This document shows, in pieces, positions 1-29,470 of a DNA stretch of 64,000 bases. Every line of letters starts with the position of its first letter. The stretch's first letter is position 1. Under the pieces are notes generated by a model. That model did not search any database. It saw only the letters and a program-made list of their open reading frames with translations, and was not told the DNA's origin. The stretch is from Eledone cirrhosa. Lineage: Eukaryota. The stretch lies in contig OZ024743.1 of assembly GCA_964016885.1 (NCBI GenBank), positions 362,576,001 to 362,640,000 on the forward strand, in the 5' to 3' direction. The translations under genes and the position numbers were made by a program.

Positions 1-613
1 ATATTGGAGTTTGGAACATTGCAATAGAGAATTTTTTAAATTATTTAGTGCGACCAACATTACAGATACTGTGAATCGAGGAGGGAACCTCTATGTGGTC
101 ATCTGATTTACTAGAAATAGCAACAAAATATTCTCCAAACCCAAACCTAGCGTGTTATCAAAGGACAGGCAAGCGTTGCATAGTGTGGTTGTGGATTTCC
201 TGCACTTAGAAAAAAGACGGGCCGGCATGATTAGAATGATTTTGCTCATAAGACTGTTCGATCAGAGTTAGGATTATGTTAAACAGAAACAATCATAGAT
301 ACCATAAACCTACGAGAGAATCTTCATGTAGTTATTCAATCCGACAGAAATGCAACCAAATCAAACTCAAACCAAACCGTACAGTCTTTGCTATAATCTA
401 TGGAAAACACAGCTTGGTCAGAGTTAACTTGGGGCTGAACAATCACAATAACAAGAGCAGTAACAACAAACAATAACAACAAAAGCAACAGCAATTATAG
501 ATATGATATCATTCTTTAGAACGAGGAACAGAAGCAAAGTCTTTTGGAGATTGATACCACTGCCAATGTAAAAATCTGTCTAAAGCAGCAACAAACATAT
601 GAAGTGAAATAAT

Positions 614-711
614 TGTTTCTACTTTAGGTACAATGCCAGCAATTACCCATTGCATTACTGGTACTTTATTTTATCGACCCCGTAAGGATGAAAGGCAAAG
701 TCAACCTCGGT
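614..711 (-). mobile_element. 5'-truncated tRNA-derived SINE (family S1) with 18-bp TSD
   Basis: Reverse complement of the S1 body GCCTTTCATCCTTACGGGGTCGATAAAATAAAGTACCAG...AAAGTAGAAACA; direct repeat CATATGAAGTGAAATAAT at 596-613 and 712-729. Confidence 0.9.
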
Positions 712-1589
712 CATATGAAGTGAAATAATATAATACAAAATGTAGAGTTATTTTTATTATTACTCATATACCACCTCGTACACCACCGATTACTAGATCT
801 CTGGATTCGCTTGAGCAATATTCTTGTCAATAATATCGATTGATTCATTTCCAGGCATTCTTTTGACAGTAATTAGAGGCTAGTTAGAAGTGAAATCCAA
901 GTTTCTGGTTCTGCTAGAATACGAAATGCAGGTCTGAAAAAAAGCAATTCTGAAGGGTTTCGACATTCTTAGTATGGTTTATGATATTATAAATCACTAC
1001 TGGACAATAATATGAAACAACTGTGTGAGAATGTCTAGTATGAACAGTCTTATTTGTTTTATTTTCCAAATCACAGGCAAACGCATTTATAATATTTTCC
1101 TTTTTGATCATGGTGTTTCTGAATGTTAAATGGGTCTGACCTCACTTTCAAGGTCACAGAAGTATTGTCGACAAGAAGTGGTAAACGGTCTGTTCCATTC
1201 ATGAAGTTAAACGCGTTTTTTGGGGTGGGGGGTAGTAGCTTTCTTTTGTACATTATTTATTTATATATTTGTGGTGGTGGAGGGTTATTCTCTGAATAAA
1301 AACACTGCAGGATAGCATTTATTTCCAGAAAAGACATATTTGAACAATATATATATATATATATATATATATATATATATATATATGTGTGTGTGTGTGT
1401 GTGTGTGTGTTCCGAAGAGATTGTTTTGGTAAAAACAGGAGTAAGCAGGAGAAAGCTCTTAACATTCGTAGTTTGTAGTTACGGTGTAGATTCAGTATAA
1501 CATTAATAAAGATGCTGAGAATAAACGATTTATGTAACATCAGCATCTTTATTAATGTTATATATATACATATATTGTTATACTTTAAG

Positions 1590-1800
1590 AGGGTCATGCT
1601 ACCAATAAAAACACACCTGTTAGTTTCACTTCAATTTATTATAAACGCCCAGTCGGTTAATTTAATAACCGGAAGGTTGTTTAGTTGTTGATTGTCATAG
1701 CTCTTTCGTCACACGTCCTGTGACCTCCTTAGTGACTGCTTTGGTTATTTTGTGTCTCTCCTTTGTTCTTTCCTACATCTTGTTTTTTTTGGCCGTGTAC
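1590..1800 (+). repeat. Dispersed repeat homologous to 25320-25510, possibly a PLE terminal-repeat fragment
   Basis: Shared CCAATAAAAACACAC..TTTCACTTCAATTTATTATAAA..GGAAGGTTGTTTA..AGCTCTTTCGTCA..TGTGACCTCCT; both copies are flanked by (TA)n/(TG)n. Confidence 0.65.
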
Positions 1801-2041
1801 GTTAAGTACGTAGTATATATATATATATATGTATGTATACATACATATATATATATATATATATGTGTGTGTGTGTGTGTGTGTGTGTGTGTGTGTGTGT
1901 GCGTGTGTGTGTGTGTGTGCGTGTGTGTGCGTGTGTGTGTATGTGTGCGTGCCTGCGTGTGTGTCTGTGTGTTTGTTTGTAGGTATCCGTGAATGACAGA
2001 TGAAGGAAAACAGTGCTCAGTCTGTTGCATAGGAGCTTATT

Positions 2042-2230
2042 TAGTATGAACAATGTTTCATACACTTAACATCGATGTGCGACCATTGGTTTCGGGGCCC
2101 AGTTATGGCCGCGTGCCCGATGAAGGGCTAGTTTGAAAGTGCCTCCTCAAATATACTGTGGTGGCCATAACTGGACTCCGAAACCAAGGGTCGTAATAGA
2201 TGTTTAGTTTGTGAAACATTATTTATACTA
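2042..2230 (+). repeat. Imperfect inverted repeat containing a degenerate type I hammerhead motif
   Basis: Arms 2042-2110 and 2163-2230; GTGC-CCGATGA...GAAAC-CAAGG-GTC; the opposite arm reads GAAACCAATGGTC-GCAC, restoring stem I. Confidence 0.6.
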
Positions 2231-2279
2231 TATATAGATATAGGAAAATCTGTTTAAAAAATTGAGTTTTTCTTTGAAA

Positions 2280-26336: not shown

Positions 26337-26568
26337 CTTATACAATTATATAATTATAGTATATAATTATATAATTTTAATAAATAGTTGTATTATCTAA
26401 TTATATTATTCGCAAATGAAAAAAAAATAGGGTCAAATTCTTCTGGTTTCATGGGACCTACTTGATCATGTGTGAAGGGAAAATTTCGATATAAAATAGA
26501 ATTGGTGACGAAGTGACTCTCAAAATGTTTTTTGTAAGTTAACTAGAATATTGTGTATCCTGTATAAA

Positions 26569-26870
26569 GACGCATGGCTTAGGGGGTTAGGGCTTTCGGT
26601 TCACGATCGTAATATGGTGAATTCTATGCCCAGAAGCATGTTGTGTGCTTGTGCATGTTTCTCTAGTCAAATCAACTAGCAAAATTAGTGTACCTACAAT
26701 TCAAAAGCCTAGGTCTGTCACGCACAATGTCACTCTGAATCTCCCTGAGAATTATGCTAAGGATGTACGTCTCTGCGGAATGCTCCGCCACTTGCACATT
26801 AAGTTCACAAGGAGGGTGTTACGTAGATCGCATAACCTGAAACATTCATCATCGTAACTAACATAGTGCT
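26569..26870 (+). mobile_element. tRNA-headed SINE family S2 (CORE-like)
   Basis: GCATGGCTTAGGGGTTAGG head; TTCAAA..TGTCAC..CTGAATCTCCCTGAGAA body shared with 26030, 29471 and 37146. Confidence 0.7.
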
Positions 26871-27954
26871 ATTTTTGGGGATGCTGTCTTTCCTTTTCAG
26901 ATTCTTTGAGTTCATCCTAAGGAACATGGTCCCATTGCTGGAGTTTAGATAACAACAACAGTAAAGGGTTTACATGTTAAATCTTTAGAAAAATCTGGTA
27001 AATGTTTACTGTTTCGCTTATAATTTGTATGTATGTATGTATGTATGTCAACATCATCGGATGCTTCTGAAGTCGCAGGTTTTTTTGGCGGGGTTTTCAG
27101 TGTTTCCCTCTCCTAGAAAGGTGTTGTAATAACAAAAAAAAAAGTACTATTTGGATGGCCGTTGACTCTGCTGAGTTCCTCCGCCCTTTGACGAGTCTTG
27201 TATTTCATCCTTTTCGAGTAGTGTTTTCGATGCTCAGAGAGTGGGACTGGTCGAGTGCAAGGCCTTTCCCCACTTAAAAAATCTTCAAAGCACAGGCATT
27301 CCTTGTTCAGGATATGTTACAGGTTGTGTGGTTGGCCTTAGCCCAATAGTGCACCAAACTCTATAGCAGAGTTTGCAGACATCATGTATGTATGCACGCA
27401 TTAATAAAAAAGTGTCACAAATCCTGCAACCGCTAAGATCCTATTAATGACGTAGTAACATGCTACGGCCGGAAGCAATTCTGTTAAAAGCAACACGATT
27501 TCATCTCAGTTGTTTTCGTTACCAGTCCCAATTCAAATTAACAAAAAGGCTAAAGAAAATACATTCATGCTAAGAAACTAAAATACAAACAAGATGGAAA
27601 TGTACTTTTTACACAACTTCCACTATGACGTTGATGGTCAACGTTATCAATGAGATAGACGAGGTCATAGTAACCACTTCACACAGGAAGAAAACGTATT
27701 ATTTTCAATGAAATATGACTGACATCAGCATCGCAGACGCTATCCTGTTAGTAATCTATTTATTTTGTCACTTGACGACAGCCTAAAAGTAAGCTAGAAA
27801 TATACGAACGTGATATGGCAGAAAAGAATTGGTCTTCAGAGTTAACCTTTTTACGTACTAAAATGTTAGACGTTATATCTGCTAGGAGAAATTAGAATTG
27901 TATTCTGTGTATTGCATGATAAGCCTCTGCAAAAAAGTTCTAATACCACCAAGT

Positions 27955-28329
27955 TGAAAATTACCGGTGTCGAAGACGCTACTTTTTTCCTAAAATAAGT
28001 TCAAAAATCTACCAAGCGCCCTGGAAGCCGAAGGTTGTTTATTATTTTATTTTTCAAATGGGTGGTGGATTGGCAGTATCGGTAGAGAGTCAGACACCAT
28101 GCTTTCCAGCATAGTTACGTCCCTTTACGATCTGAGTTCAAATCCCTCCGAGGTTGACTTTGCCTTTCATCCTTAGGGGGTCGATAAAATAAAGTACCAG
28201 TAATGCACTGGGTAATTGCTGGCCTTGTGCCTAAAGTAGAAACAATTATTTTATTTTTCAAATTTTTGGTTGTCAAAATTAAGGTGCGTCCTCGAGGACG
28301 AAGCGTCTTCGGCGTCGGGAAACACGGTA
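27955..28329. mobile_element. pogo/Tigger-like MITE interrupted by an S1 SINE
   Basis: Imperfect TIRs CCGGTGTCGAAGACGC / GCGTCTTCGGCGTCGGGAAACACGG-TA. Confidence 0.5.
28060..28244 (+). mobile_element. Full-length S1 SINE with 19-bp TSD
   Basis: TSD ATTATTTTATTTTTCAAAT at 28041-28059 and 28245-28263; A and B boxes present. Confidence 0.95.
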
Positions 28330-29128
28330 AATACCGTTCTTCGAGAGTCCATAAAGCGAACGCCATTATTTCACTGGGATGTATCCACCCGACGAAGTTC
28401 CTTCCTTTAAAATACTTTCGTTCTGTACCAATATGAGGTATGAAAATGTGTTGCTATAGCTTTATTTTTCTTTCAATCTACGTTGTTGTTTATTTGACAA
28501 CAAATGTGTATATACCTCTGAATTAATATGTACATGAGTATAGTAGCCTATATGAGTATAGCTTCAGTTTTTTCTGTATTCATAATATTGTCGACAACGA
28601 ATAAAAGAAAACATTATTCAATTTTCAACACTAGATAGAAAGAAGAATGAAAAGAAAAGAAAGATTCAGCATGAAGAAAAATTAAAAGTATAAAACAAAC
28701 ATAGTGAAAAAATGACATAAAAAACTAATAAAATATATCTTGACTCACAGACAGACACAAATACGAAATAAAAAAAAAGCCAAAAAGGAAACAAGAGCAA
28801 ACGAAATAATACAAAATGAAACGAAGAACGAAGGAAAGGAAGAAAGAAAGAGCGACGAATGAATCTACAAATAGATGATATAGAATGGTGGAATAAATAA
28901 AGCAAACATATCTATATTTTTCTTAAGAAAATATATAATTGACTGTTAGAATTGCGTTTGTCAACATTAGATAATAAGAAAAACGTGTCTCCAAGATGAA
29001 AGACATCTGTTTGATTGCTGAAACTCTCTTGAAAAATGGAACAACTCTTGAAGGCAATGTCTTCTTCTGAGTCTGTTAACATGTGCAAGCAATACAGGAA
29101 AATGATAGAGTGACTTAATATTTATAAT

Positions 29129-29169
29129 TGTTTCTACTTTAGGCACAAGGCCAGAAAATACCCAGTGCA
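29129..29169 (-). mobile_element. 41-bp 3' fragment of S1 SINE with 14-bp TSD
   Basis: TTAATA(T/G)TTATAAT at 29115-29128 and 29170-29183. Confidence 0.85.
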
Positions 29170-29470
29170 TTAATAGTTATAATATTAGCGTGTGATTTCA
29201 CGGTAAAACATGTCTACATCCTCCAGCTATTTGTTGCCGCCTTTGCTATTTTCTTTATTTAAACTTTTCTTTTCAATTTATTTTATTTAAGTCATTGGGC
29301 TGCGACCATGCTGGAACATTACATTCAAGGTTGAATTGGTCATATGAATCTCAGTATTTATTCCAGTGTGATATTTATTTTGTCGAAGCTCTAAGTTACG
29401 AAACATAAAGAGACACGAAAGTAACAAACACCAGTTATAGGCCGTAGAAACGGAATGGGATGGACCTACA

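Follow-up and report, generated by a model that had tools for sequence, protein, structure and literature searches.

Site-specific insertion of an abundant SINE at ATTAT motifs in Eledone cirrhosa, and ATT-tailed L1/Tx1-like LINEs as its candidate carrier

In crocodilians the short interspersed element (SINE) SINEU is tied to the long interspersed element (LINE) Tx1-Mar by target preference and similar age, and its tandem insertions sandwich a target-site duplication (TSD) (PMC4494074). Other L1-group elements with an apurinic/apyrimidinic-type (APE) endonuclease are specific for microsatellites, related families using different repeats: (TC)n for Kibi, (TTC)n for Koshi, and (TTCC)n or (TTTC)n for crocodilian Tx1 (PMC4494074). 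A comparable arrangement is found in Eledone cirrhosa, in a stretch of 64,000 nucleotides (assembly GCA_964016885.1, contig OZ024743.1, positions 362,576,001 to 362,640,000; hereafter the window), where solitary copies of a SINE lie at ATTAT motifs and L1/Tx1-like LINEs lie in ATT tracts. SINE and LINE are again linked by target preference and age, related LINE families again use different repeats, and SINEs again occur in tandem. However, SINEU has U1/U2 heads and a Mariner target, whereas the Eledone SINE combines a putatively tRNA-like head with a short ATT motif as target and a 3' hairpin shared with the LINEs, and the (ATT)n and (TATC)n targets differ from the repeats of Kibi, Koshi and crocodilian Tx1.

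The chemistry, too, has precedents. In the snap-velcro model of human L1 and Alu the nick likewise falls at a pyrimidine-purine step, the TSD starts with RNA tail sequence, longer pairing helps priming and a terminal C is tolerated (PMC4014453); the Eledone elements differ in that (AUU)n takes the part of poly(A), in that the SINE gains no net tail, and in a recognition that looks stringent, through a hairpin, instead of relaxed through poly(A). Few SINEs are known to share their tail with a partner LINE of the L1 group, three in one survey (PMC3472496); the stringent L1-clade pairs ZmSINE2/3 with LINE1-1_ZM and SINEX-3_CR with L1-1_CR come from plants or algae and have poly(A) ends, and the survey, so far as consulted, mentions no target specificity for them. 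RTE/Bov-B and Sauria SINE likewise have an insertion signature, Tn-TA, tied to the 3' microsatellite (PMC13295347), but the Eledone sites have no upstream T-run and match the tail repeat, which is rare for Bov-B. The literature consulted holds no account of this ATTAT motif or of this SINE-LINE pairing in cephalopods; repeat databases, older papers and supplements may hold one. The mechanism proposed here is target-primed reverse transcription of the standard kind. The sequence comparisons set out below place SINE insertions at Y|RTTA(T), the bar marking the nick, with TSDs of about 13-20 bp, and we consider it likely that the SINE is copied in this way by the open reading frame 2 protein (ORF2p) of an ATT-tailed L1/Tx1-like LINE.

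The SINE and its insertion site

Four solitary SINEs in the window have readable TSDs, and all four pairs lie where the original prediction had placed them, with lengths of 18, 17, 19 and 14 bp (Table 1). Since the 3' copy abuts the end of the SINE body, ...GTAGAAACA, in each case, it could be mistaken for a tail, which leaves the 5' copy to identify the target. All four 5' copies start with ATTAT and are preceded by T, so that ATTAT must be more than the SINE tail. A fifth solitary SINE (36364-36550, minus strand) lacks a long TSD and has just CATT at its 5' flank. At 37477-37514 two SINE tails stand head to head, as a fold-back or an inverted insertion.

Few sequences of the genome are as abundant as this SINE, of which 80 evenly spaced 10-kb stretches (800 kb) hold 109 3'-intact copies. 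It is short and non-coding and has many dispersed copies, 5' truncations and TSDs. The head carries A- and B-box-like motifs at 28069-28148, as judged by eye against the consensus; ARAGORN found no tRNA in it, and Rfam gave no tRNA match. AG precedes GGYGGTG in 33 of 66 full-length copies and AA in 13, and the true 5' end may lie a few bases earlier. Three tandem arrays (L098, L128, L022) consist of three to five copies with one common TSD string and a pyrimidine before the leftmost site. Read as a gauge of re-insertion at the 5' TSD, the age order in tandem pairs gives at most a trend: the upstream member is nearer the young reference in 8/10 non-selected pairs (p = 0.11), in 5/5 random pairs (p = 0.06) and in 4/8 top hits.

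For a genome-wide view, SINEs were sampled from 29 top-hit loci, the 80 stretches and the LINE loci. In the random set, 94 of the 109 3'-intact copies combined a canonical end with sufficient flank, and 29 of these had an exact non-ATT TSD core of at least 6 nt. TSDs for the logo were located by their non-ATT part, without using ATTAT. Their core had to measure at least 8 nt and to lie no more than 10 nt from the 5' end; cores made up of (TA)n alone were left out, as were SINEs that directly follow the tail of another SINE. The resulting 35 copies (16 top hits, 16 random, 2 from the window, 1 other) start with ATTAT in 27 cases, GTTAT in three, ATTAA in two, ATTAC in one and otherwise in two. 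The claim that all TSDs begin with ATTAT thus holds for the four in the window and not for the genome at large. In 33 of the 35 the 5' flank matches the entire 3' ATT run, leaving no net tail, and in these 33 the base at -1 is C (19) or T (14), never A or G. A pyrimidine precedes ATTAT in 58% of cases in the genomic background, which gives 33/33 a chance of 0.584^33 = 2e-8. The base at +1 is A in 30 and G in three, +2 to +4 read TTA in all 33, and +5 is T in 30. The consensus site is therefore Y|RTTA(T), with the TSD beginning at the purine; its length is 13-20 bp in 32/35 and 10, 23 and 30 bp in the rest, the two long ones both lying in tandem arrays. At all three targets starting with G, the G also appears at the 3' junction, which fixes the nick to the left of the purine.

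A count that makes no use of TSDs agrees with the logo. ATTAT occurs within 28 nt upstream of 52/92 random SINE copies, the reverse complement ATAAT in 7/92, and ATTAT in windows shifted upstream by 100 and 150 nt in 10/92 and 5/92, respectively; the chance of ATTAT starting at a random position is p = 0.0025. The enrichment at the 5' side that had been predicted is thus present, and targeting of the SINE to ATTAT is confirmed genome-wide. That ATTAT stands behind every SINE body, in DNA that is 63% AT in our sample, could raise the suspicion that tail has merely been read into the TSD. We regard the chance of such an artefact as negligible, given that the motif lies in the 5' flank, is strand-specific (52 versus 7 of 92) and is present at empty paralogous sites.

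Empty sites are available for two of the window insertions. SINE 3 sits in a MITE-like (miniature inverted-repeat transposable element-like) repeat, with 1542 first-look genomic candidates, which carries a T|ATTATT site; all 14 paralogues fetched run through the site without a SINE, and 13 of them read TTATTAT once. For SINE 4, the intervals 28483-29114 and 29170-29378 align to neighbouring positions on a contig from another organism, which by these coordinates lacks exactly 29115-29169, made up of the 41-nt SINE fragment and a single copy of the TSD. A further aligned run (X8) showed no empty allele among the pieces listed. Because the empty paralogues of site 3 carry ATTAT, the motif is the target and not the tail.

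Endonuclease preference and tail pairing

What would select such a site? The original prediction had left the matter between a sequence-specific endonuclease, annealing of the AUU tail, or both. The base at -1 lies across the nick and outside the primer, and the RNA has A there, so pairing cannot explain the pyrimidine; its strict occurrence (33/33) upholds the specificity part and points to an endonuclease preference, with 5'-(A)TAAY|R-3' as the cut strand. The L1 nick, 5'-TTTT|A, is likewise a pyrimidine-purine step (PMC4014453). Usage per site, on the other hand, rises about 100-fold as the ATT run lengthens, with 0.16, 1.65, 5.9, 21.7 and 12.9 SINEs per 100 Y|ATT sites for runs of 4, 5, 6-7, 8-11 and 12 or more nt (approximate values, since present-day sites were counted). 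This climb fits AUUAUU pairing and suggests that tail annealing acts as a second filter on top of the endonuclease preference. A loose, TSD-free count of SINEs behind NATTATT gave 6.8% for C, 2.1% each for A and T, and none for G, with no SINE at 115 G|ATTATT sites.

Either component has also to be considered alone. The endonuclease might suffice if reverse transcription started at a set distance from the hairpin without tail pairing, and the fixed start register in 33/35 copies and the tolerance of G at +1 and of A or C at +5 would suit this. We nevertheless think it quite improbable, as usage rises steeply up to ATT runs of 8-11 nt, LINEs acquire long tails although their hairpin lies at the same distance, and the machinery of a TATC-tailed sister lineage, described below, goes unused by the SINE in spite of its hairpin. 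Conversely, any nick or break exposing ATAAT-3' might prime on the AUU tail, which would accord with the run-length dependence and with the need of L1 priming for base pairing (PMC4014453). Such annealing without a specific cut appears very improbable, though, in view of the pyrimidine at -1 in 33/33 where A would pair better, the empty count at G|ATTATT (0/115) and the narrow range of TSD lengths.

On the mechanism we favour, which joins both components, ORF2p would grip the 3' CUUGU hairpin common to SINE and LINE RNA, and its APE endonuclease would nick the bottom strand at the L1-like pyrimidine-purine step of 5'-(A)TAAY|R-3'. The freed ...ATAAT-3' end would then pair with AUUAU right behind the SINE body, a step that would favour longer ATT runs and leave no net tail gained, and the top strand would be cut 13-20 nt downstream.

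ATT-tailed LINEs, their hairpin and a TATC-tailed sister lineage

The candidate carriers in the window are two Tx1-like LINEs, of families A and B (Table 1); the LINEs of this kind terminate in a hairpin followed by AATAAA and (ATT)n. Their Pfam domains are Exo_endo_phos, RVT_1 and zf-RVT; the best PDB match of the reverse transcriptase (RT) is L1 ORF2p (E 1e-45, versus 1e-20 for R2), that of the APE domain is L1 EN, and by these matches the candidate carrier belongs to the L1 group. A CCHC zinc knuckle in ORF1 is a feature of the Tx1 clade that is found in plant L1 too, and ORF1 of LINE B (50259-51260), which has such a knuckle, gave no Pfam match. The carrier is likely to fall in the Tx1 clade, for which a target preference in more than 20% of flanks is taken as characteristic (PMC4494074) and is seen in the ATT and TATC lineages alike. 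No named Tx1 sequence occurs among 120 listed homologues, cluster members or Atlas matches; the closest named ORF2 homologues among the matches listed are hypothetical proteins of Argonauta hians (67% and 63%). A run of 13 G (52199-52211) shifts the frame within the APE fragment that had been proposed for cleavage assays (51722-52450); a paralogue (L296) has an open endonuclease frame. LINE A contains an internal 1.9-kb duplication (40758-42639 and 42911-44781, 93.7%) that repeats the end of ORF1 and the endonuclease.

The proposed link between the SINE and the LINEs sitting in ATT holds up: polarity, ATT target core and 3' hairpin are shared. The 5' junction abuts an ATT run of at least 8 nt, in the SINE polarity, in 23/27 full-length B copies and 20/28 truncated A and B copies, and an older B-lineage copy (L282) has a 14-bp TSD of the SINE type, c|ATTATCACTCTAAT. 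SINE and LINE 3' ends have the loop CUUGU in common, and their stems differ yet pair (GGC/GCC in the SINE, GCC/GGC in family B, ACC/GGT in family A); none of ten tail representatives has lost either of the two middle pairs, and each pair has changed on both sides in two rows. A common 3' end with a conserved stem-loop, the stringent mark of a SINE-LINE pair, is thus present over about 30 nt. Median identity among top hits is 97.8 for the SINE, 99.3 for LINE B and 97.2 for LINE A, and the youngest SINE and A/B LINE copies are of similar age. Moreover, LINE tails end in C|ATT, a perfect SINE site, and a SINE stands directly behind 12/23 old copies, compared with 19/278 random C|ATTATT sites.

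Several observations weigh against this account. Relaxing the cores to 6-7 nt adds eight sites to the logo, seven with a pyrimidine and one with A at -1, and 65/94 random copies have no exact 6-nt core and lie outside the logo. SINEs stand behind 8/390 A|ATTATT sites, a frequency equal to that for T; on inspection one of the eight proved to be a genuine A site, two were ambiguous and the other five had different explanations. L1 RT tolerates a terminal C mismatch, so that G at +1 is by itself no proof of endonuclease action (PMC4014453). The outer stem pair of the hairpin is broken in 4/10 rows, related rows are not independent, and the tail common to SINE and LINE spans just about 30 nt. A unique-core search for LINE TSDs over ~57 mapped copies raised four flags, with L282 the sole convincing one, and two 5' junctions of ATT-family LINEs (L060, L138) lie in (CTT)n tracts. 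Finally, 5' ATT runs of at least 8 nt are found at 23/27 full-length LINE B copies versus 8/94 SINEs, and the 3' runs of young A and B LINEs have medians of 25 and 18 nt versus 6 for the SINE. The expectation that SINE and Tx1 logos should agree is therefore borne out for core and polarity and fails for tract length. This gap probably arises because LINE RNA carries many AUU units, which are copied, while SINE RNA probably carries no more than the first five or six bases of its own TSD.

The gap in tract and tail length could also mean that the young SINEs are carried, by the same chemistry, by a further ATT-tailed LINE family of relaxed specificity to which A and B are stricter relatives. The best match to the SINE tail is indeed in an old family, F (GAAAC[CA]ATT, short tails, one 14-bp TSD, 86% identity between copies), and other 5' ends in ATT tracts lack identification. 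We think such a family unlikely, although it deserves to be kept in mind. F groups with B (support 99), which makes it an earlier stage of the same lineage, the SINE too prefers longer runs per site, and all six non-SINE hairpin and ATT tails in the 800 kb of random DNA are of the A or B/F type.

A carrier from another clade appears hardly credible. The window holds an element (47371-49300) that we name R4/Dong-like from its motifs, with a restriction-like endonuclease; copies of this kind are young (97.8%) and lie in the same tracts, and RTE elements are common partners of SINEs. The Dong-like copies were rejected as carrier since their 3' ends read ...GCAACTG(TAA)n and the tracts around them, read on the element strand, are (TAA)n, the opposite polarity. 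RTE-like copies end in (ATG)n with an unrelated 3' end, and the T-run near -10 that marks RTE insertions (PMC13295347) is missing from the SINE logo.

A control on the L1/Tx1-like carrier comes from two sister LINE families, E and G (L011:960-1240, L232-L260, L289), which have the same hairpin and end in (TATC)n. They form one clade (support 100) whose position among the ATT families is weak (support 75); one copy (L289) has an open ORF2 of 1153 amino acids. Their 5' junctions lie in TATC in 19/21 mapped cases and in ATT in none. TATC follows none of 204 SINE ends, though TATCTATC sites reach about a tenth of the frequency of YATTATT. As the TATC lineage has the hairpin but no SINE behind it, the hairpin alone is insufficient. 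One residue of an endonuclease loop, which we take to match the L1 endonuclease hairpin by its position, is M or I in the ATT families and S in the TATC families; this is one evolutionary change and no more than a lead. As a tentative extension, which we rate as possible rather than probable, the SINE would be tailless, with AUUAU as the start of its own TSD being transcribed by polymerase read-through and priming the next Y|ATTAT site, so that tail and target would renew one another, and one lineage would have switched target and tail together from ATT to TATC while keeping the hairpin, so locking the SINE out.

Features of the window and significance

Table 1. Positions in the window of the SINE insertions, LINEs and associated features
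Positions	Strand	Feature	Remarks
596..613	-	SINE 1, 3' TSD copy	18 bp
614..711	-	SINE 1, 5'-truncated copy
712..729	-	SINE 1, 5' TSD copy	T before it
23702..23718	+	SINE 2, 5' TSD copy	17 bp; T before it
23719..23829	+	SINE 2, 5'-truncated copy	short internal duplication
23830..23846	+	SINE 2, 3' TSD copy
27961..28330		MITE-like repeat with inverted ends, host of SINE 3	paralogues supply empty site
28041..28059	+	SINE 3, 5' TSD copy	19 bp; T before it
28060..28244	+	SINE 3, full-length short form	RNA polymerase III A-/B-box-like motifs; ends GTAGAAACA
28220..28232	+	SINE 3, predicted 3' hairpin	stem GGC/GCC, loop CUUGU
28245..28263	+	SINE 3, 3' TSD copy
29115..29128	-	SINE 4, 3' TSD copy	14 bp; one mismatch
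29129..29169	-	SINE 4, 41-nt 3' fragment	hairpin retained
29170..29183	-	SINE 4, 5' TSD copy	T before it
36364..36550	-	Fifth solitary SINE	5' flank ends CATT; no long TSD
39670..47356	+	Tx1-like LINE, family A	rearranged; inserted behind SINE tail
47332..47344	+	LINE A, 3' hairpin	then (ATT)n
47371..49300	-	R4/Dong-like element (presumed name)	in ATT tract, opposite orientation; rival carrier
49500..55426	+	Tx1-like LINE, family B	AATAAA at 3' end
50259..51260	+	LINE B, ORF1	CCHC knuckle CX2CX4HX4C
51722..55151	+	LINE B, APE domain from 51722; RT and zf-RVT to 55151	APE domain frameshifted
55401..55413	+	LINE B, 3' hairpin
55427..55479	+	LINE B, (ATT)n tail	landing site for further fragments

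Elsewhere the window contains a 3.1-kb inverted duplication (6901-9970 and 10973-14014, 98% identity) around (AT)n-rich DNA, a 37-bp tandem repeat at 30486-30647 (4.4 copies, 97%), and a Penelope-like open frame at 62005-63501 with RT and a weak GIY-YIG match; fragments at 18924-20973 (minus strand) may be similarly Penelope-like.

The Y|RTTA nick rule, together with the candidate carrier, would account for the landing sites of the SINE and for the accumulation of SINEs and LINEs in ATT tracts. With one hairpin and two target and tail repeats in sister lineages, the contributions of endonuclease and priming can be separated in a direct test, which is of relevance to the engineering of site-specific retrotransposons. 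If the tentative view of a tailless SINE and a joint switch of target and tail is true, the two lineages would amount to a natural swap experiment on target change in an APE retrotransposon, for which the loop residue of the endonuclease hairpin is a candidate, and the elements would supply the genome with ATT and TATC arrays in a self-seeding manner.

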